Source: Pyrodictium abyssi
GTDB taxonomy: Archaea; Thermoproteota; Thermoprotei_A; Sulfolobales; Pyrodictiaceae
Assembly (NCBI RefSeq): GCF_036323395.1
Contig: NZ_AP028907.1
Span: forward strand, 30,001-62,000
Direction of reading: 5' to 3'
Length of the DNA: 32,000 nucleotides
Part shown: positions 150-14,196 of the stretch, piece by piece
Layout of the letters: each line of letters begins with the position of its first letter
Position numbering within the stretch: the first letter of the stretch is position 1
Position numbers and translations under genes: made by a program
The notes under the pieces: model-generated
Told to the model about the DNA's origin: nothing
What the model saw: only the letters and a program-made list of their open reading frames with translations
Databases searched by the model: none

Positions 150-472
150 CACGCCGCCACCTATCGCCATGGGTCCTGGTGCATGTAGCGAACCCCCGGC
201 AATGCGTGTTCGCGGCATTACGGTAAGTGGTAATCAGTGTACACGGGGATACGCGGCTATATTGTTACCACTATTACAGCCTGAAGCATATTGTCATTGA
301 CGCTATAGTAGTCGTAGTCGTCGCCGCTGTTGCGGCAGCCATTCCGACCCGAGTTCAAATCCAACGCCGATTACTAGTATGTATCTAGTATCTACTCTAG
401 TTCCGCGTTTCCTCATAGCAGGCGAAAACAACCTTACCGTAGGACAGTAAAGAGTATTGAAAGAAGCGACAC

Positions 473-751
473 ATGGCTATTAAATTGTCTTGGCTTTATA
501 TTATTAGGGAAGTGGGGCAGGGACATGCCTTGGTGCGCCGCTGCGTCTGGCTTGACGGCTCGCTGCTGAAGGCGTGCCGGGTGCTAAGGGCCCGGCTCGG
601 GCCCCTAGGCTACCGCGCGATATGCCGTAGCGGCCTCCCCGACGGGGCTATAGACGCTATGGCTGCCAGGGCTGGCTGCGCTGTGGCGACCAGCGACGAG
701 CACATAGTGAGAGCAGTCATGGAGGCATGCTGGGCCAAGATACCACAGTAG
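473..751 (+). CDS. Small PIN-like protein (Mut7-C/DUF5615-like); the true start may be the GTG at 533
   Basis: CVWLDGSLLKACRVLRARLGPLGYRA...DGAIDAMAARAGCAVATSDEHIVRAV fits the pattern f.lD..L..La..L...Gy.a......D..I...A...g..l.T.D of PIN-like DUF5615/Mut7-C domains. The protein is short, so this is tentative. Confidence 0.4.
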   Translation: MAIKLSWLYIIREVGQGHALVRRCVWLDGSLLKACRVLRARLGPLGYRAICRSGLPDGAIDAMAARAGCAVATSDEHIVRAVMEACWAKIPQ

Positions 752-928
752 TACGCCGAGAAGAAGAGCACCAGAGGCCTCGCCACACATATACTCAAGC
801 AGCCTCCACAAGCGCAGTACTGGGGCCGATGAGCCGGGGAGGGTCGTGCCGTAGCGTCCCGTGTACCGGGGTACTGGCTGGGAGGCTGTCCCCCTGGCCC
901 GCGGGAGTGTGGCGGCGAGGCCCCCGGG

Positions 929-2813: not shown

Positions 2814-3152
2814 TCAGCTCTCTTGAGCCAGGCCCAGCGGCAGCCACGGCGCCAGCACTACGGCCGACGAGAGCAGAGCCGCCGAGACAGCCGCGGCGTA
2901 GACCGTGTAGGCCGCTGGGCCGCCCCGCACCACGACAGCTAGGGCGAAGAGAACTAGAAGCGGGTAGGTGTACAGCGGTATCCCGCCCAGACAACGCCTC
3001 GTAGCGCCGTTGAGCACCCTCCTAGCGTCCTCCACCACGAGCATCTCCATGACCCCTAGGAGGAGCAGCGTGAGCCCCGCCAGCCTGCCCACAGCCACCA
3101 GCCCGCCGGCGCCCACCCGTAGCGCCTGCGTCAACAGAGCAGAGTAGACCAC
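2814..3152 (-). CDS. Hypothetical membrane protein (GTG start)
   Basis: A 112-aa ORF with about three hydrophobic helices (GLVAVGRLAGLTLLLLGV, IPLYTYPLLVLFALAVVV, AAAVSAALLSSAVVLAPWL). No family recognised. The upstream region is compositionally ambiguous. Confidence 0.4.
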   Translation of the reverse strand: MVYSALLTQALRVGAGGLVAVGRLAGLTLLLLGVMEMLVVEDARRVLNGATRRCLGGIPLYTYPLLVLFALAVVVRGGPAAYTVYAAAVSAALLSSAVVLAPWLPLGLAQES

Positions 3153-3831
3153 CCCCAGCAGCCCAGAGGAGCCGCCGACGCCAGCAGCCTGGGCCCGAGA
3201 CGAAGAACGTAGCAGCTAGGAGGATCCACGAAGGGCTTCGAGGGGTCGAGTAGCCCTCCCAGACGCAGCACAACCAAGCTCGCATCGAAAAGGGTCAACG
3301 TAGACAACACGACAAGCGGGTAGAGCCCGCCACCCGCACGAGAAGAGCCGTGAACGAACCCGGCCGCCCCTGCACGCGCCTAGGACGCACCAACCGCCAC
3401 CACTCCATAGAAGTGCTAGACCATATAGTGGGCCCGAAGTGTCCACCACAACAAAGCACGCAGACAAGCCACAGGCAGGCACTGCAGCAGAGAACCAAGC
3501 ACCCTCCCGTAACCCAGATTACACCAGCACCCGGCAACAGAGACAAACCCGGGGCACCACAGAGTCCCCACACGAAGCACCAAGAGGAGCCCCCGCAGGG
3601 AGGCTGCAGGCCACATGGCCCTCGCCGGGAGGCCCAAGCGGGGTAGATACGTATAGTACACGGGCTACGCCGCGCCATAGCCATGGCCCTAGCAGTGCTC
3701 TTCACCTACAAAGCTCTGAAGGAAGCAGCCACAGACCCCATCTGGAGCCTCATATACATCCTCATAAGCCTAGAATACCTCACAGAAACACCAACACTCT
3801 CAACAAAGAAGCAATAAACAGGGAGACAACA

Positions 3832-4980
3832 CTACTCTATCAGCCGGAACTTCTTCAACGCCTCAGCAACGTCATGGGGCTGCGTATCCCACTCGTTACG
3901 CCACGGATCAAACATCTCAACCGGAGTAGGAACAGCCACAGACCCCAGCACAGTGTTCTCCGAGTACACCTTACCGCTACAGTACTCCTCGATAAACCCG
4001 GTCAACAACGGACGTATCTCATTATTCACAAGGAAAGTCGCTATAACACGCTCCTCCCCTATAAACAGCTGTGGCGCCGACAACGTGGAGGCAGCAAGCA
4101 CATACAGCTGCTCCGCGCAATCCCCGCCAGCCACAACCATCGATACACCCACATCACCACGACCACCGTTATGGAGCACAGCACCTAGCCAAGTACGGCC
4201 AATATATCCTTTTTCGCTCAAACGGTCATAGTGGCTCTTCATGTAGCGAAGCCTAAGAGCAGCATCCGGAGGCAACTTCCTAGTTATGTCCTCTACACGC
4301 GCTCTAGCTAGCAAATTAACGCTACGCAAGTCAATGTTTCTTAAGAGCGGATAGTATTCCACCATTGTAACCACTATGACGTCTACAAACCTCATACGAG
4401 AATTCAACGGGGTAAACCTAGCAACATTTTCAAATGTATCGGCATGCATACTATAGGTTTCCCGAATATCATCTAGGCTTCTAGCAATTCTCCCGACACA
4501 ATTATACACAGGAACAGCGTAACCTACGTCAACAAAAGATATTCTATCCCCTAGACTTTCCTTGAACCCGTCCACGAGTTCAGGAACAAACCTCTTAGGA
4601 ACCTTATATGTTAGCAGCATCTTGCCCCCGAAGAGCCTGGAAACAGACACCAGGTAGCGTACCAGAGGCAGTTCGAGCTGGAACCACGCGTTCATTGAGC
4701 GCTCCTGGCGTATAGCGTTGAACTTCCTTGCAAGCTCCTCAGCGCCATGCACCATTGCTATAACTGACTGTAGGCCTATAGCCCTGTGGTCCACGAGAGC
4801 CATCGTTGACCTGCGGTGTTTCTTTATGTTTTCTAGCTCTATTTTCCGTACACGGCGTATGATTGCGCGCAGGTGCTGGTCTGTTATGCCCATTCTGTCT
4901 GCCATCTCGACTGCGCTAACCCTGAAATCGTAGCACGATAGTAGTGCTGCCACTATGTCTAGGTCTTTGTGTATCTTCAA
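3832..4980 (-). CDS. Putative transcriptional regulator with an N-terminal HTH and two Lrp/AsnC-like modules
   Basis: A clean 382-aa ORF. It has an HTH (VEMADRMGITDQHLRAIIRRVRK). A second module reads YMKSHYDRLSEKGYIGRTWLGAVLHNGGRGDVGVSMVVAGG, which follows the Lrp pattern L.e.G.I.g..a.l.....g....a.v.v. The first module reads MALVDHRAIGLQSVIAMVHG. GC is clearly lower than in neighbouring genes. Confidence 0.7.
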   Translation of the reverse strand: MKIHKDLDIVAALLSCYDFRVSAVEMADRMGITDQHLRAIIRRVRKIELENIKKHRRSTMALVDHRAIGLQSVIAMVHGAEELARKFNAIRQERSMNAWFQLELPLVRYLVSVSRLFGGKMLLTYKVPKRFVPELVDGFKESLGDRISFVDVGYAVPVYNCVGRIARSLDDIRETYSMHADTFENVARFTPLNSRMRFVDVIVVTMVEYYPLLRNIDLRSVNLLARARVEDITRKLPPDAALRLRYMKSHYDRLSEKGYIGRTWLGAVLHNGGRGDVGVSMVVAGGDCAEQLYVLAASTLSAPQLFIGEERVIATFLVNNEIRPLLTGFIEEYCSGKVYSENTVLGSVAVPTPVEMFDPWRNEWDTQPHDVAEALKKFRLIE

Positions 4981-5343
4981 TTTTCCCGTCCTCGGGGTAT
5001 TACGCTCAACATGCGTGCAAGGTAAACCAGTCCTCTCTACCCACTCAGAGCCTGGACAGCCCGGGCAGAGGGGTGTGGAAAAGCCATGTACGAGCCCTAC
5101 GACGTTCCTGTCCCGGTACTCTAAGCTCTGGGCGCCCGGCCGGGCCCCTGGGGGAGGGAGGGTTCATCCCCCCGGCCGCTCGCCCTCCCTTCCCCTGGGG
5201 GCCGCGTGGGCCCACGGGGTACGCGTCCACCCTTTTTCCTCCCGGTTCCTCCCGGGTGTTGTGCAGTGGGTGGTGGTTCCTCTTCTCGGCTACGCATCTA
5301 TGGCCGGGTTTTGGTTGTTCCGGGGCTCTGGGCTGTCTCCGTG

Positions 5344-5840: not shown

Positions 5841-7682
5841 GTGGGTTCTACTCAGAAGTTGCCCGGCTGGAGCAAGAGGATACTCTGGGTCGACCTGTCG
5901 CGGGGCGTGTTCAGGGAGTGGCGCTACCCTGGCGAGATGGCGCTTATGTTCCTTGGGGGCCGCGGGTTCGCGGCCAAGATCCTCTGGGACTTCCTCGAGC
6001 CGGGGGTTGACCCCCTGGGGCCCCGTAACCTGTTCGTGGCGGCTGTGGGGCCTCTTACCGGGCTCCCTGGGCCGAATACGGGCAAGCTCGTTGTTGCGGC
6101 TAAGAGCCCGCTCACCGGGGGCTACGGCGACGGCAACATAGGCTCGTGGGCTGCGGTGCAGATGAGGGCTGCTGGCTGGGACGCGATAGTCCTGGAGGGC
6201 GCCTCGGAGAAGCCCGTGGTGCTCGTCGTGGAGGACGACCGTGCCTGGCTCGAGCCGGCGGAGGACCTCTGGGGGCTCGACGCGTTCCGGGCCTACGACA
6301 AGCTAGTGGAGCGGTATGGCCGCAGCGCGGGGATACTGCTGATAGGCCCTGCCGGCGAGAACATGGTGCGCTACGCCACCGTGGTCTCCATGAAGGGCCG
6401 CGCCGGCGGCAGGCCCGGCATGGGCGCGGTGCTTGGGAGCAAGCGCGTCAAGGCCATCGTGGTGCGTGGGACGAAGCGTCCGGAGCTGTTCGACCCCGAG
6501 GCGGTTATGCGGGCTGCGGTGGAGGCGATAAGGGAGGTCAAGGCTAGCCCTAGCTTCGGGTTCTGGATGCGCCAGGGCACAATGTTCACCGTGGAGTGGG
6601 CGCAGGAGGCTAGCGTGCTCCCCGCCTACAACTTCCGCGAGGGCGTGTTCGAGGGCTACGAGGGGCTCAGCGGCAGCTACATGGAGCGGATAGAGGTGGA
6701 CCTGCGTAGCTGCCCCCTCTGCGTGATACCCTGCGGCCACGTGATAGAGGACGTGGAGGGCCGCCGCGTCGAGCTAGACTACGAGAACGTAGCCATGCTC
6801 GGCAGCAACCTCGGCGTGTCGAGGCTGGAGGAGGCGGGGCTCTTGAACAGGCTAGCAGACCTCTACGGCCTGGACACTATCAGCCTCGGCGGCACCCTGG
6901 GATACGCCCTAGAGGCCGCTGAGAGGGGCAAGCTGGAGCTAGACGCGGGCTGGGGTGAGGCCCGGAAGATAGCAGGGCTCGTGGAGGATATCGCTCTACG
7001 CCGTGGCGTCGGGGACCTGCTGGCGGAGGGCAGCGCCAGGGTATCTAGAAAGTTGGGCGAGACCTGGTACGCTATGCACGTCAAGGGCCTCGAGGTGAGC
7101 GCCTACGACTGCCACGCAGCGCCCGGCATGGCGCTCGCCTTCGCCACGAGCCCCATAGGGGCGCACCACAAGGACGCGTGGATGATCGGCTGGGAGATAC
7201 AGCACGGCCGCACAGAGTACAGCCGCGAGAAGGTGCGGAAGCTCATATGGATGCAGAGGTTCCGCGGCGGCCTATTCGAGGCAGCCGTAGCCTGCCGCTT
7301 CCCAGTGGTCGAGACCGGCCTCGGCCTAGAGCACTACCTGCGCCTCCTCCAGGCGGCGACAGGGCAGAGCCTCAGCCTAGACGACATCTACACCATAGCG
7401 GACAGGATATACGCCCTCATACGGATGATATGGGTCCGGGAACACGGCGGCTGGAGCACGGACATGGACATGCCCCCAGAGCGCTGGTTCCGCGAACCCC
7501 TCACCAAGGGCCCACTAAAGGGCGCACGGCTAGACCCCGACCGGTTCCGGGACATGCTCCAGATGTACTACGAGGAGCGCGGCTGGGCCCCCAACGGAGT
7601 CCCACGCCCAGACACGCTACACAGGCTAGGCCTACACGACGCCGCCAACCTAGCAGAGAGACACATGACCACCGCGAGCTAG
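5841..7682 (+). CDS. aor: Tungsten-containing aldehyde:ferredoxin oxidoreductase family protein (start GTG 5841 or TTG 5859)
   Basis: Full-length similarity to AOR: ILWVDLS...LGGRGFAAKILWD, GPLTG...KSPLTGGYGDGNIG, GPAGENMVRYA, GRAGGRPGMGAVLGSKRVKAIVV, the CPLCVIPCG cluster motif, LDTISLGGTLGYALE, and LP.RW/ YYEERGW at the C-terminus. Confidence 0.95.
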   Translation: MGSTQKLPGWSKRILWVDLSRGVFREWRYPGEMALMFLGGRGFAAKILWDFLEPGVDPLGPRNLFVAAVGPLTGLPGPNTGKLVVAAKSPLTGGYGDGNIGSWAAVQMRAAGWDAIVLEGASEKPVVLVVEDDRAWLEPAEDLWGLDAFRAYDKLVERYGRSAGILLIGPAGENMVRYATVVSMKGRAGGRPGMGAVLGSKRVKAIVVRGTKRPELFDPEAVMRAAVEAIREVKASPSFGFWMRQGTMFTVEWAQEASVLPAYNFREGVFEGYEGLSGSYMERIEVDLRSCPLCVIPCGHVIEDVEGRRVELDYENVAMLGSNLGVSRLEEAGLLNRLADLYGLDTISLGGTLGYALEAAERGKLELDAGWGEARKIAGLVEDIALRRGVGDLLAEGSARVSRKLGETWYAMHVKGLEVSAYDCHAAPGMALAFATSPIGAHHKDAWMIGWEIQHGRTEYSREKVRKLIWMQRFRGGLFEAAVACRFPVVETGLGLEHYLRLLQAATGQSLSLDDIYTIADRIYALIRMIWVREHGGWSTDMDMPPERWFREPLTKGPLKGARLDPDRFRDMLQMYYEERGWAPNGVPRPDTLHRLGLHDAANLAERHMTTAS

Positions 7683-7761
7683 TATAAAACGCAAAAACCC
7701 TCCGCCTTCCGCTTTTATACCCAACGCTTCTCGGGAGACCAGAATCCCGCGTAACAAATTA

Positions 7762-7768
7762 CTTATAC
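7762..7768 (+). promoter_or_regulatory. TATA-like element (cttatac) about 60 nt upstream of cannula-like gene 1; a second TTTTATAC lies at 7713-7720
   Basis: This is an A/T-rich hexamer in an otherwise GC-rich spacer. The paralog at 13459-13998 has the same two-element layout (-60 and -110). Confidence 0.3.
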
Positions 7769-7825
7769 CACCCACACAGCACACTACACACGACCAAAAC
7801 TCACATCTAGAAGGGTGTGTTGGCT

Positions 7826-8362
7826 ATGAGGCCTACGGCTCTGGCTCTGGCTGGCATCGTGGCCTCGGCTGCCGCCCTCGCCCTGCTAGCTGGCTTCGCC
7901 ACTACCCAGAGCCCGCTCAACAGCTTCTACGCCACCGGCACAGCAGAGGCAGTGCAAGAGCCAATAGATGTTGTGAGCCAGCTGAACACTAACATAGACC
8001 CTGCTGCTGGCGCACAGGGCAGCAAGGATATGGGCAGCATAAAGATATACAATAGGACTGACGTGAACGTAGTAAAGCTGAAGATAACCATAGCCAATGC
8101 TGCCCAGCTAAGGCCCTACTTCGACTACCTACAGCTAGTAATAAACAGCACAGCTAACAGCAACGTCCCAGAGATCAAAGCCGTGCTAAGCCTCAAGAAG
8201 CCCAGCGCAGTCATAATACTAGACAACGAGGACTTCGCTGGCAGCGACAGTGGTGGCGACTATGCACAGCTACAAGTCAAGGCCTACTACGAGGCCAGGG
8301 AGGGCATGCTATTCGACAGCCTACCAGTGATACTCAACTTCCAGGTACTAAGCGTCAGCTAA
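7826..8362 (+). CDS. CanA-like extracellular tubule (cannula) subunit, paralog 1, with N-terminal signal peptide
   Basis: ATG at 7826 with a GGGTG Shine-Dalgarno-like element upstream. Signal peptide MRPTALALAGIVASAAALALLAGFA is followed by TTQSPLNSFYATGTA..EPIDV, KLKITIANAAQLRPYFDYLQL and YYEAREGMLFDSLPVILNFQVLSVS. These match my recollection of Pyrodictium abyssi CanA. It is paralogous to 13459..13998. Confidence 0.8.
   Translation: MRPTALALAGIVASAAALALLAGFATTQSPLNSFYATGTAEAVQEPIDVVSQLNTNIDPAAGAQGSKDMGSIKIYNRTDVNVVKLKITIANAAQLRPYFDYLQLVINSTANSNVPEIKAVLSLKKPSAVIILDNEDFAGSDSGGDYAQLQVKAYYEAREGMLFDSLPVILNFQVLSVS
8282..8362. repeat. Left arm of a perfect 81-nt inverted repeat (3' end of cannula-like gene 1)
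   Basis: gcctactacgaggccagggagggcatgctattcgacagcctaccagtgatactcaacttccaggtactaagcgtcagctaa is identical to the reverse complement of 13459-13539. Confidence 0.95.
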
Positions 8363-8398
8363 AGCCTACAATACTCCAGATAAGCCTACGTCAAGTCC

Positions 8399-8406
8399 TC
8401 TTTTTA
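8399..8406 (+). terminator. T-run terminator candidate (CTTTTTAC) after cannula-like gene 1
   Basis: A T5 run lies 37 nt after the stop. The same CTTTTTAC octamer follows the paralog and the peroxiredoxin gene. Confidence 0.4.
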
Positions 8407-8549
8407 CTTCCTCCTTCTAGGTCTCTCATTCAACCTTTAGCGAATCATTGCATGGGTCCTTTTGCCCTACCTTCTAGTTGGTGTCGCATACAAACGGTAT
8501 AACGGTATACCTTGACTGCACTGTCTCTCAGGGCCCTGGTGCAGTGGGT

Positions 8550-11316: not shown

Positions 11317-11577
11317 GTGGACCTGGTGGCAGAAACACGGGTGGGCCGTAAGGGCGCTATCTACATACCTAAGGGCATACTACGCCGGCTGGGTGTCGAG
11401 GAGGGAGACCAGGTTGTTATACGCGTCGAGGACGAGAAGAGAATTACCCTAGAGTTCATCCCCGACCCCTTCCTGCTAGCAGCGAGGCAAAAGCCCTGGG
11501 CCCGGACGAGCGTAGAGGAGTTCGAGAAGGAGAGTGAGGAGGAGCAGCTTGGCTGGACCAGTGAGGGCTCTGCTTGA
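11317..11577 (+). CDS. vapB: AbrB/SpoVT-fold antitoxin (VapB-like)
   Basis: RVGRKGAIYIPKGILRRLGVEEGDQVVIRVEDEKRITLEFI is a classic SpoVT/AbrB swapped-hairpin motif. It has an acidic tail and overlaps the downstream PIN gene. Confidence 0.85.
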   Translation: MDLVAETRVGRKGAIYIPKGILRRLGVEEGDQVVIRVEDEKRITLEFIPDPFLLAARQKPWARTSVEEFEKESEEEQLGWTSEGSA

Positions 11578-12031
11578 CACTAGCTACTTCCTCCCCGTAT
11601 TCGGGGTCGCTGTAGAGGGCCTAGAGCCCAGCGACCTCCTCGCGATAAGGAGGTACGCGCTCCGGGGCAAGCTAGAGCTATACTACGCCGAAGTAATGTG
11701 GCTAGAACTTGTTCCAAAGGTGTACCGGGAAGCGCAACGGAGAGGATACAACGCCGACGCCATAGTAGAGCAGGGAGCCAAGTCTATAATGAAGGCGAGC
11801 TACCTCAAGCGCGCCCTCGTGGACTGGAAGGCGGTCAGGATAGCCTACGAGATGCGGAGACTAGGCCACCGGGACATGATAGACAATATGCTCTACGGTA
11901 TAGCTTCCTCTCAAGGCCTAGTACTAGTGACCATGGATAGAGCGCTTGCCGGCCTCGCCCGGGACAGAGCGGCTGGAGGCGCAAAAATCCTGGACCATAA
12001 CGAGCTGCTGAAAATGCTCCAGGACGGCTAA
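11561..12031 (+). CDS. vapC: PIN-domain ribonuclease toxin (VapC-like), GTG start overlapping vapB by 17 nt
   Basis: ALLDTSYFLP supplies the first acidic residue. AEVMWLELV and HRDMIDNMLYGIASSQGLVLVTMDRAL supply the distal acidic residues. Size and gene order are typical of VapBC. Confidence 0.85.
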   Translation: MRALLDTSYFLPVFGVAVEGLEPSDLLAIRRYALRGKLELYYAEVMWLELVPKVYREAQRRGYNADAIVEQGAKSIMKASYLKRALVDWKAVRIAYEMRRLGHRDMIDNMLYGIASSQGLVLVTMDRALAGLARDRAAGGAKILDHNELLKMLQDG

Positions 12032-13190: not shown

Positions 13191-13414
13191 CCAGGAGCCC
13201 AGGTAGCCTACCCCAAGCCAAAAGAATGCTACCACACCATGCAGCCACAAAGCCTCTAACAAAACGTAGCCACTACAGCCAGCCGGTAGACGACTGGCAC
13301 TACGAAGTAGACATGGATACTTAAGAAGGTGGCGGACCGGGACTGGAGCGTGCCGAGCAGAAGCAAGGACACGCTCAAAGCGTGGAGACCCTGGGGCTAG
13401 GATATGGAATTGAA

Positions 13415-13422
13415 GTAAAAAG
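13415..13422 (-). terminator. T-run terminator candidate (CTTTTTAC on the minus strand) after cannula-like gene 2
   Basis: The plus strand reads gtaaaaag, about 37-44 nt downstream of the stop at 13459-13461. Confidence 0.4.
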
Positions 13423-13458
13423 GTGTATGGTTGGGGCTAGGGGCTATGGGTGTGGGTG

Positions 13459-13539
13459 TTAGCTGACGCTTAGTACCTGGAAGTTGAGTATCACTGGTAG
13501 GCTGTCGAATAGCATGCCCTCCCTGGCCTCGTAGTAGGC
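13459..13539. repeat. Right arm of a perfect 81-nt inverted repeat (3' end of cannula-like gene 2)
   Basis: Its reverse complement is identical to 8282-8362. Confidence 0.95.
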
Positions 13540-13998
13540 TGTCACAGTTATGTTGGCCTGGTTATCGCTGCCTAGGTCCTCGTCGTCTAGTATTATGACT
13601 GCGCTGGGCTTCTCGAGGCTCAACACAGCCTTGATCTCGTCTACCTCGCCGCTAGTTGTCGCCTTGGACTCTATTACTAGCTGTAAGTAGTCGAAGTATG
13701 GCCTTAGCTGGGCAGCATTGGCTAGAGTCACCTTCAGCTTTACAGTGTCGACCTGGGCGTTGTTGGGCTCTGTTATCTTCACGTAGCCCATGTATATCTT
13801 GCCCTGTGCGCCAGCGGCGGGAGCTATACTGTTGACCGTGAGGTGGCTTTCTACGTCTATTGGCTCGCTTACCGCCTGAGCCTCGCCGGTGGCGTAGAAG
13901 CTGCTTAGCGGGCTCTGGGTAGTGGCGAAGCCAGCTAGCAGGGCGAGAGCGGCAGCCGAGGCCACGATGCCAGCCAGAGCCAGGGTCGTATACCTCAT
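13459..13998 (-). CDS. CanA-like extracellular tubule (cannula) subunit, paralog 2, with N-terminal signal peptide
   Basis: MRYTTLALAGIVASAAALALLAGFATTQSPLSSFYATGEAQAVSEPIDVESHL..., KLKVTLANAAQLRPYFDYLQLVI and YYEAREGMLFDSLPVILNFQVLSVS. A strong AGGTGA Shine-Dalgarno element lies 8 nt before the ATG. Confidence 0.85.
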   Translation of the reverse strand: MRYTTLALAGIVASAAALALLAGFATTQSPLSSFYATGEAQAVSEPIDVESHLTVNSIAPAAGAQGKIYMGYVKITEPNNAQVDTVKLKVTLANAAQLRPYFDYLQLVIESKATTSGEVDEIKAVLSLEKPSAVIILDDEDLGSDNQANITVTAYYEAREGMLFDSLPVILNFQVLSVS

Positions 13999-14050
13999 GG
14001 CTTGTTCACCTTAGGCACGGGCTCTGGTCGTGTATAGCGAGGCCCTAGGA

Positions 14051-14060
14051 TGTAATAAAT
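14051..14060 (-). promoter_or_regulatory. TATA-like element (tatttattac on minus) about 60 nt upstream of cannula-like gene 2; a second TTTTATAC lies at 14099-14106 (minus)
   Basis: A/T-rich elements occupy the same two positions (-60 and -110) as upstream of paralog 1. Confidence 0.3.
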
Positions 14061-14196
14061 ACTGTACACTTCGGGGCAAACGAGATAATGATGCGTAAAG
14101 TATAAAACTTGTGGGAGTGTGATGGGAGGCGCCTTTGTTGTGGTGTTCCGCTTCATGTACTGGATGGCTTAGTGGTTTCCGTACTATGGCTAGCTG

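Follow-up and report, generated by a model that had tools for sequence, protein, structure and literature searches.

Two likely CanX-type cannula subunit genes of Pyrodictium abyssi AV2 with homogenized ends and divergent, sequon-bearing cores

Introduction

Are two small proteins encoded in the genome of Pyrodictium abyssi AV2 further building blocks of its cannulae, the heat-resistant tubes that this deep-sea archaeon builds outside its cells, and, if so, what could they bring to a tube whose major subunit is already known? The two open reading frames (ORFs), here called paralog 1 and paralog 2, lie in a 32,000-nt stretch of NZ_AP028907.1 (the window), which belongs to the same strain as the published CanX cannulae. 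A reading of the letters made without database searches (the sequence-only reading) had taken them for short subunits of the CanA family. Judged by their sequences and modelled folds, both proteins belong to the CanX/CanA family of the Pyrodictiaceae and show each of its defining features that sequence and model can address, and we consider it very probable that both ORFs are intact genes for CanX-type (short, loop-less) cannula subunits of P. abyssi AV2 that polymerize as CanX does.

The ex vivo cannulae of AV2 have been solved at 2.3 Å, and their major subunit was named CanX (WP_338251948.1, PABY_06890) (Sleutel et al., Nat Commun 2025, PMC12518558). Along the tube axis, cannula subunits interlock through an N-terminal donor strand that fills a groove lined by strands B and K. 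Axial and radial contacts are bridged by Ca2+ at sites of three kinds (types I and II axial, type III radial), and CanX bears an N-glycan at Asn51, on the outer surface (PMC12518558). The donor-strand complementation that the sequence-only reading had named for CanA is this published mechanism. The AV2 genome holds 15 CanA-like paralogs, of which 11 sit in two clusters and four are orphans, and six have a mature length of 140–160 aa; whether the Can paralogs of this genome are minor subunits was a question raised in the same study (PMC12518558). Family and assembly have thus been known for this strain since 2025, and the two paralogs add little biologically. What is added here is a name for two hypothetical proteins, a comparison of their sequons with Asn51, and evidence for concerted evolution of the gene ends.

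Results

Family membership and predicted fold

Both ORFs were found where they had been read, at 7826–8362 on the plus strand (paralog 1, 178 aa) and 13459–13998 on the minus strand (paralog 2, 179 aa), and they are 100% identical to WP_338250752.1 (PABY_00420) and WP_338250768.1 (PABY_00490) of AV2, respectively. The two proteins share 74% identity (BLASTP, E 1e-78). The conserved blocks quoted in the sequence-only reading are all present, including the end of the signal peptide (...LLAGFA), the N-terminal stretch TTQSPL(N/S)SFYATG...EPIDV, the internal blocks KLK(I/V)T(I/L)ANAAQLRPYFDYLQLVI and KPSAVIILD, and a C-terminus of 26 residues, AYYEAREGMLFDSLPVILNFQVLSVS, that is identical in the two paralogs.

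When each paralog was compared with all PDB sequences by phmmer, CanX (9h8b) was matched over its full length with E 1.1e-79 for paralog 1 and 1.1e-74 for paralog 2. CanA (7uii, 9dlo, and 9hdi) was likewise matched full length, with E 4.5e-47 and 2.4e-45, and so was Hyper2 (9bab), with E 3.5e-12 and 4.1e-11, respectively. The proposed membership in the CanA family is borne out by these values, which run from 1e-79 to 1e-11 against solved cannula proteins, and by fold matches that agree with them. One refinement is needed: the assignment to the CanA family stands, whereas the nearest characterized protein is CanX (72–79% identity) rather than CanA (only ~53%).

AlphaFold2 models were built for the mature monomers. 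The predicted local distance difference test (pLDDT) and predicted template modelling (pTM) scores were 80.6 and 0.75 for paralog 1 and 82.5 and 0.76 for paralog 2. Both models have a jelly-roll with a beta-rich core and one short helix, and their N-terminal residues are disordered, with pLDDT below 50 over mature residues 1–18 in paralog 1 and 1–17 in paralog 2. Searching the PDB with Foldseek gave five matches below E 1e-3 for each model, namely CanX, three CanA structures, and Hyper2, with template modelling (TM) scores of 0.72–0.82, and all further PDB matches of both models were at noise level. The predicted fold is a jelly-roll whose matches below this threshold are cannula subunits only.

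Scanning Pfam-A with hmmscan at E up to 10 yielded only sub-threshold chance matches, to DUF5068 and DUF4340, and no match to DUF1102; no NCBIfam model matched either paralog. UniRef automatically names the paralogs "Flagellar protein FliL", which is wrong; neither this name nor "Hcp" is backed by a Pfam or NCBIfam match. Misleading UniRef names, including "Type VI secretion system tube protein Hcp" and "SAF domain-containing protein", are spread over the homologue P0010 and both paralogs, and Pfam and NCBIfam give them no backing.

Among 1.84 billion proteins, the cannula-subunit family had 42 representatives at E up to 1e-3. Some of these representatives are 372–422 aa long (P0023–P0029 and P0034–P0035), and in several of them the N-terminal 110 residues of Can and the C-terminal block were matched separately, with a large inserted core domain between them, which agrees with the "substantial domain insertions" described in PMC12518558. 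Two other homologues, P0018 (PABY_15020, 131 aa) and P0020 (from a metagenome, 157 aa), are truncated or frame-disrupted Can-like fragments; P0018 has the usual signal peptide and donor region followed by an unrelated tail. These fragments suggest birth-and-death turnover in the Can family.

Conservation of the signal peptide and the subunit interface

Residue numbers below are those of mature paralog 1 unless stated otherwise. The Sec-type signal peptide that had been read in both proteins is nearly identical to the N terminus of the CanX precursor, from which paralog 1 differs at 4 and paralog 2 at 2 of 25 residues, all within residues 1–12, and the last 13 residues, through ...LLAGFA, are the same in all three proteins. 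The cleavage site was assigned by homology: the modelled CanX chain (9h8b) comprises 149 of 174 residues, i.e., 25 fewer, and recombinant mature CanA begins with M-TTQSPL.

Downstream of the predicted cleavage site, the face of the donor strand formed by F9, A11, G13, A15, and A17 is kept in both paralogs. F9, A11, and G13 do not vary among the 14–18 homologues compared, A15 and A17 hardly do, and the substitutions in the donor strand, Q16E in paralog 1 and T14E and Q19S in paralog 2, sit on the alternate, exposed positions. This pattern fits the published pocket rule, according to which P1 is aromatic, P2–P5 are G, A, or V, and a central Gly is essential (PMC12518558). The strands that flank the groove are equally well preserved. 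Strand K (LNFQVLSVS) is the same in CanX and both paralogs, and strand B, IDVESHL in CanX, is unchanged in paralog 2 and reads IDVVSQL in paralog 1, altered at alternate positions only. The conserved N-terminal donor strand and C-terminal acceptor strand that the sequence-only reading had pointed out are thus present in both proteins.

The residues surrounding Ca2+ in the known structures were compared in the same way. Of the axial Ca2+ loops, residues 34–40 of CanA correspond to AAGAQG, a match in six residues that is followed at the seventh by Ser in paralog 1 and Lys in paralog 2, and residues 161–173 of CanA correspond to YYEAREGMLFDSL (YYEAxEGMLFDSL), with two changes relative to CanA (F to Y and K to R) and the single K to R change relative to CanX. 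The C-terminal motif YYEA(R/K)EGMLFDSLPVILNFQVLSVS as a whole equals that of CanX except for this K to R. In addition, the acidic residues equivalent to E97, D114, E116, and D117 of CanA, the Ca2+ area defined by nuclear magnetic resonance (NMR), are kept in both paralogs. Overall, F9, A11, G13, E20, P21, A35–G40 (AAGAQG), D108, Y130, E131, and G135 are invariant in 18 homologues.

Divergence of the core and relocation of the sequons

The sequence-only reading had placed the differences between the paralogs mainly in the core, and the counts agree with it. Non-synonymous or gap positions make up 36/102 of the core and 0/26 of the C-terminus, with 2/25 in the signal peptide and 5/25 in the donor region. 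Variation gathers in four segments at precursor residues ~49–58, 66–82, 107–116, and 137–152. The second of these holds the Asn51 site, and the third and fourth are at the positions of the outward-projecting loops of CanA. Because the segments align with these loops and with Asn51 of CanX, it is reasonable to infer that they lie on the outer surface.

The sequons are exactly those listed before, and all are carried by the variable core: paralog 1 has NRT and NST, and paralog 2 has NIT. N51-R-T of paralog 1 corresponds to the glycosylated N-Y-T of CanX, which also carries N-A-S two residues from the N82-S-T site of paralog 1. Paralog 2 has N-N-A at position 51, where the sequon is lost; its sole sequon is N124-I-T, at a site where the homologues P0009, P0010, and P0012 also have a sequon. 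Both proteins are more acidic than CanX (pI 5.1). Both are also shorter than CanA, as the sequence-only reading had noted, with a mature length of 153 or 154 aa vs 182 aa, since the two outer loops of CanA are absent from them. The conserved interface and the moved sequons are compatible with the proposal that the two are interchangeable subunits with different glycosylated faces.

Homogenized ends of the two genes

Nei–Gojobori estimates between the two copies gave a synonymous divergence (dS) of 0.09 in the signal peptide, 0.76 in the donor region, 0.70 in the core, and 0.00 in the last 26 codons, where a 78-nt run of identity ends exactly at the stop codon. At codons for identical residues, synonymous differences number 1/47 in the two ends and 21/82 elsewhere (Fisher P 4e-4), and they cluster beside non-synonymous sites (permutation P 2e-4). 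The two genes form an inverted repeat, whose arms 7823–7983 and 13841–14001 are 86% complementary and arms 8282–8370 and 13451–13539 are 97% complementary. The ratio of non-synonymous to synonymous divergence (dN/dS) is ~0.13–0.4, and both genes are therefore under purifying selection.

The can genes also have a strong codon bias of their own. Compared with 15 neighbours, AGC makes up 83% vs 49% of Ser codons, AGG 100% vs 29% of Arg codons, and CTA 51% vs 24% of Leu codons, and GCG and CCG are avoided. Such a bias may be a signature of high expression. As the cause of the identical ends, codon bias alone is insufficient. Comparisons between genomes do show slightly fewer synonymous changes at the gene ends, but not the near-zero divergence: a metagenome homologue of like core divergence has 8/46 synonymous differences at the ends vs 1/47 in the AV2 pair (P 0.015). 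Near-zero synonymous change is found within the genome and not between genomes, and the ends have therefore been homogenized within the genome, which arises most simply by gene conversion. Within AV2, the DNA-level comparison covered the two copies in the window; scans of contigs with the protein and with the alignment returned only one contig end of a Hyperthermus metagenome-assembled genome (MAG) and no P. abyssi or P. occultum loci.

A second case of unequal divergence along the gene was seen in two metagenome homologues. P0004 and P0006 are 100% DNA-identical over the aligned core and C-terminus (120 codons), with three core codons missing from P0006, and only 81% identical in the donor-strand region, with different N-terminal sequences. 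This pattern suggests that N-terminal modules have been exchanged in nature, although an artefact of assembly may also be the cause. Protein alignments of 6 and 11 sequences gave no significant signal of recombination in a PHI-type test (P 0.4–0.9), and a sliding-window nearest-neighbour scan for mosaicism gave hints only. Given the negative PHI-type test, general recombination among the AV2 paralogs is not demonstrated.

These observations bear on what the two copies are for. They could be silent or rarely expressed spare copies that act mainly as sequence donors and, like pilS cassettes, recombine through their identical ends with the expressed canX or with each other, altering the cannula surface. 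Such a role would account for the near-zero dS and the 1/47 synonymous differences of the ends, for the clustering beside non-synonymous sites, for the shared core and C-terminus of P0004 and P0006 behind different N-terminal modules, and for native cannulae that looked like pure CanX (PMC12518558). Spare donors are nevertheless an unlikely explanation: unlike promoterless cassettes, both copies are complete, with a start codon, a Shine–Dalgarno-like element, a signal peptide, a TATA-like box, and a T-run (Table 1); dN/dS is well below 1; both share the strongly biased can codon usage; and the PHI-type test on the proteins of six AV2 paralogs was not significant.

Arrangement and surroundings of the two genes

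The two can genes are convergent, with their coding regions 5.1 kb apart, and lie far from the canX cluster (PABY_06890 to 06990), which is ~650 genes away, and from the second cluster (PABY_14980 to 15020). No other can genes flank either paralog, and when the six-frame translation of the window was searched with a profile, no third, divergent can gene turned up. With 72–79% identity to CanX and mature lengths of 153 and 154 aa, the two are almost certainly among the 15 published CanA-like paralogs, and, given their distance from both clusters and the absence of a third can gene from the window, they are probably two of the four orphans.

For paralog 1, the mechanical ORF opens at a GTG at 7817, which is the GenBank call (BES80475.1, 181 aa). 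The ATG at 7826 is the better start because it is the RefSeq call, is aligned with the start of paralog 2, and is preceded in both genes by the Shine–Dalgarno-like GGTG 8 nt upstream.

Outside the coding region, the two copies are only ~55% alike, yet they have discrete common motifs (Table 1). Counting both strands, the 32-kb window has just four copies of TTTTATA, and two of these are at matching distances upstream of the can genes. In the window, the leader motif CTAYACACGACCA, at about −40, is found only upstream of the two can genes, and CTTTTTACTTC occurs twice, once after each of them. Each gene thus appears to have its own candidate promoter, leader, and terminator and to be independently transcribed as a monocistronic unit. 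A sigma-70 and intrinsic-terminator scan, made for bacteria and unsuited to an archaeon, gave nothing near the can genes, and neither Rfam nor a tRNA scan had a match in the window.

Table 1 Coordinates of features of the two can genes in the window and of two metagenome loci, the latter numbered along their own contigs
Feature	Gene	Position	Strand	Remarks
Coding sequence	Paralog 1	7826..8362	+	178 aa precursor, 153 aa mature, 16.5 kDa, pI 4.6
Coding sequence	Paralog 2	13459..13998	-	179 aa precursor, 154 aa mature, 16.6 kDa, pI 4.3
Sec/SPI signal peptide MRPTALALAGIVASAAALALLAGFA	Paralog 1	7826..7900	+	Predicted cleavage before TTQSPL, by homology
Signal peptide MRYTTLALAGIVASAAALALLAGFA	Paralog 2	13924..13998	-	22/25 codons identical to paralog 1
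Donor strand region, mature residues 1-25	Paralog 1	7901..7975	+	One face is F9, A11, G13, A15, A17
Donor strand region, mature residues 1-25	Paralog 2	13849..13923	-	Buried face identical to CanX
Sequon N51-R-T (NRT, precursor residue 76)	Paralog 1	8051..8059	+	Aligns with glycosylated Asn51 (N-Y-T) of CanX
Sequon N82-S-T (NST, precursor residue 107)	Paralog 1	8144..8152	+	In the loop where CanA has its first outward insertion
Sequon N124-I-T (NIT, precursor residue 149)	Paralog 2	13546..13554	-	Sole sequon; strand preceding AYYEA
Last 26 codons and stop	Paralog 1	8282..8362	+	Putative Ca2+ loop YYEAREGMLFDSLP and acceptor strand K (NFQVLSVS); 100% DNA-identical to paralog 2
Last 26 codons and stop	Paralog 2	13459..13539	-	DNA-identical to paralog 1
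Candidate archaeal TATA box TTTTATA	Paralog 1	7713..7719	+	107-113 nt upstream of ATG; motif match
Weaker proximal TA-rich box CTTATA	Paralog 1	7762-7767	+	Motif match
Candidate TATA box TTTTATA	Paralog 2	14101..14107	-	103-109 nt upstream of ATG; motif match
Proximal box ATTTATTAC	Paralog 2	14052-14060	-	Motif match
Leader motif CTACACACGACCA	Paralog 1	7784-7796	+	With Shine-Dalgarno-like GGTG at 7814-7817
Leader motif CTATACACGACCA	Paralog 2	14037-14025	-	With GGTG at 14010-14007
Candidate T-run terminator CTTTTTACTTC	Paralog 1	8400..8410	+	38 nt after stop
Candidate T-run terminator CTTTTTACTTC	Paralog 2	13412..13422	-	37 nt after stop
P0004 / P0006 loci (L004 / L006)	Metagenome homologues	500-1024 / 331-876		JGI 3300005753 and ENA ERZ27236690 metagenome contigs

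The segment between the can genes encodes a metallophosphoesterase, an ORF without family matches, a MazE/PIN pair, and an FAD oxidoreductase. Paralog 1 is flanked on its outer side by an aldehyde:ferredoxin oxidoreductase (AOR), and paralog 2 by an MBL-fold protein and, beyond it, an EamA transporter. Among the genes of the window, none for a chaperone, an usher, or a signal peptidase was found near the can genes, and the published can loci likewise have no chaperone or dedicated peptidase gene nearby (PMC12518558).

Some features of the surroundings are recorded here as observations. Upstream of paralog 1, GTATAAAAC (7682–7690) and CTTTTATAC (7712–7720) form an inverted pair of TATA-like boxes that starts at the AOR stop codon. 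In the VapBC-like pair between the can genes (11317–12031, plus strand), the MazE/AbrB-type antitoxin (86 aa) overlaps the PIN-domain toxin (165 aa), and a PIN gene is likewise found near the can locus L002 of P. occultum. Finally, the GC content of the window at 3000–5000 is 49% vs 60–70% elsewhere, with a strong AT skew in the preceding kilobase; this segment holds a 382-aa ORF (3832–4980, minus strand) without a Pfam or NCBIfam match and may be foreign DNA.

Discussion

Family, fold, and interface motifs of the two paralogs come from the present analysis, and the steps of assembly are transferred from the structures of CanX, CanA, and Hyper2. On this basis, the precursor would leave the cell by the Sec route and lose its 25-residue signal peptide after ...AGFA, giving a mature protein of 153 or 154 residues with a jelly-roll and a disordered N-terminal strand. 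Outside the cell, seawater Ca2+ would order the loops PAAGAQG and YYEAREGMLFDSLP and thereby open the B/K groove. The N-terminal strand of the next subunit could then enter this groove via F9, A11, G13, A15, and A17, completing donor-strand complementation, and Ca2+ bridges would lock the axial and radial contacts into a rigid tube ~25 nm wide, with chaperone and usher unneeded.

Since every interface element is that of CanX and the divergent residues fall into four segments, among them the sequons and the positions of the CanA loops, each paralog is most likely an alternative or minor subunit, which would enter the CanX lattice or form tubes of its own with an outer face that differs in charge and glycans. 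Several points weigh against this reading. In the only structural study of native AV2 cannulae, the side-chain density was that of CanX (PABY_06890) as the major subunit, with two-dimensional classes free of heterogeneity (PMC12518558), so that the paralogs would be at most sub-stoichiometric in those culture conditions. Moreover, the outer-surface placement of the variable segments follows from alignment rather than filament coordinates, and conservation of the Ca2+ sites was judged from the loops named in the text of PMC12518558 and the NMR data for CanA rather than from the exact list of ligands.

The comparison with characterized systems places the paralogs closest to CanX. It is encoded in the same genome and shares with them the 25-aa type of signal peptide, the TTQSPL start, the buried face of the donor strand, the C-terminal strand, and a short architecture without outer loops (149 aa vs 153 and 154 aa mature). 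Paralog 1 also keeps its Asn51 sequon. The differences from CanX are that this sequon is absent from paralog 2, that four segments diverge, and that CanX is the major native subunit, whereas neither paralog has been found as such. CanA of P. abyssi TAG11 has the same jelly-roll, donor strand, Ca2+ loops, and C-terminal motif. However, its 182 mature residues include two large outward-projecting loops or an extra domain, and the AV2 counterpart with loops of this type is PABY_06990 (P0007), not the two paralogs. In addition to CanA, natural cannulae of TAG11 reportedly contain two short subunits, CanB and CanC (PMC12326000). With 15.6 and 16.7 kDa, CanB and CanC resemble the paralogs in size and, like them, have no extra outer domain of the CanA kind. 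They belong to a different strain, and the comparison with them covered description and mass (sequences: Mai 1998, cited in PMC12326000).

Hyper2, from a Hyperthermus sp. MAG (9bab and 9bac), has the fold (TM 0.72), the donor-strand Gly, and the Ca2+ sites in common with the paralogs, at only 25–30% identity. It was deposited as "DUF1102 domain-containing", whereas the paralogs match no DUF1102 model. It assembles with Ca2+ alone and forms tubes of different helical symmetry (PMC12518558).

N-terminal donor-strand complementation of a beta-sandwich is likewise used by chaperone–usher pilins (FimA/FimG and CfaB) and by the TasA and AbpA bundling pilins, and the Can family has been assigned to the TasA superfamily (PMC12518558). 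The echoes of these folds in the paralogs are weak (TM 0.42 for FimG, 0.40 for CfaB, and 0.45 for AbpA), with chaperone–usher matches at Foldseek E above 5e-3. In contrast to the pilins, Can proteins self-assemble on a Ca2+ trigger without chaperone or usher, build a wide hollow tube instead of a thin fibre, and have no significant sequence similarity to them. With no chaperone or usher genes in the window and weak fold echoes only, the paralogs as chaperone–usher pilins were rejected; through donor-strand complementation they would be alike in mechanism to these and to TasA-type pili, and they are members of neither family.

It is quite unlikely, in our estimate, that the two proteins are instead specialized components outside the tube wall, such as initiators, caps, branch-point subunits, or subunits of another filament or sheet. 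A single kind of protomer can be versatile, as Hyper2 builds multi-walled forms besides tubes of differing symmetry (PMC12518558), and it has been speculated that the short CanB and CanC enable natural cannulae to bifurcate, which cannulae of pure CanA do not (PMC12326000). Paralog 2, moreover, has the Asn51 sequon gone and is more acidic than CanX (pI 4.3 vs 5.1). However, length and predicted fold of both paralogs are essentially those of CanX, and both have complete donor and acceptor strands, so that neither is an obvious terminator or initiator, in which, in chaperone–usher systems, one strand is missing. As for the possibility that these are unrelated small secreted proteins, with a merely superficial or chance resemblance to CanA, the automatic UniRef names such as "Flagellar protein FliL" are all that speaks for it, and it is effectively excluded by full-length E-values of 1e-79 to 1e-45 against solved cannula subunits and fold matches to cannula proteins exclusively, FliL or any other family finding no Pfam or NCBIfam support.

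The DNA-identical ends, made up of the signal-peptide codons and the last 26 codons, raise the idea that they serve as recombination arms through which gene conversion could let the ~15 can paralogs exchange their sequon-bearing core segments. Variation of the cannula surface, whether programmed or simply frequent, would follow as an archaeal analogue of pilin antigenic variation. We regard this as a speculative and rather improbable scenario; for the inverted pair, recombination between the arms could alternatively lead to inversion of the 5.1-kb segment between the genes. If cores were exchanged in this way, variation in charge and glycans on the cannula surface might evade viruses or tune adhesion or cargo binding.

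For annotation, the practical gain is that two "hypothetical proteins" of AV2 can confidently be named CanX-like cannula subunits. These two probable orphan copies, which keep all interface motifs but reposition the sequons, are clean candidates for tests of co-polymerization and surface engineering. Beyond this pair, the homogenized ends hint at concerted evolution of the Can family, perhaps with a shuffling of surface segments.

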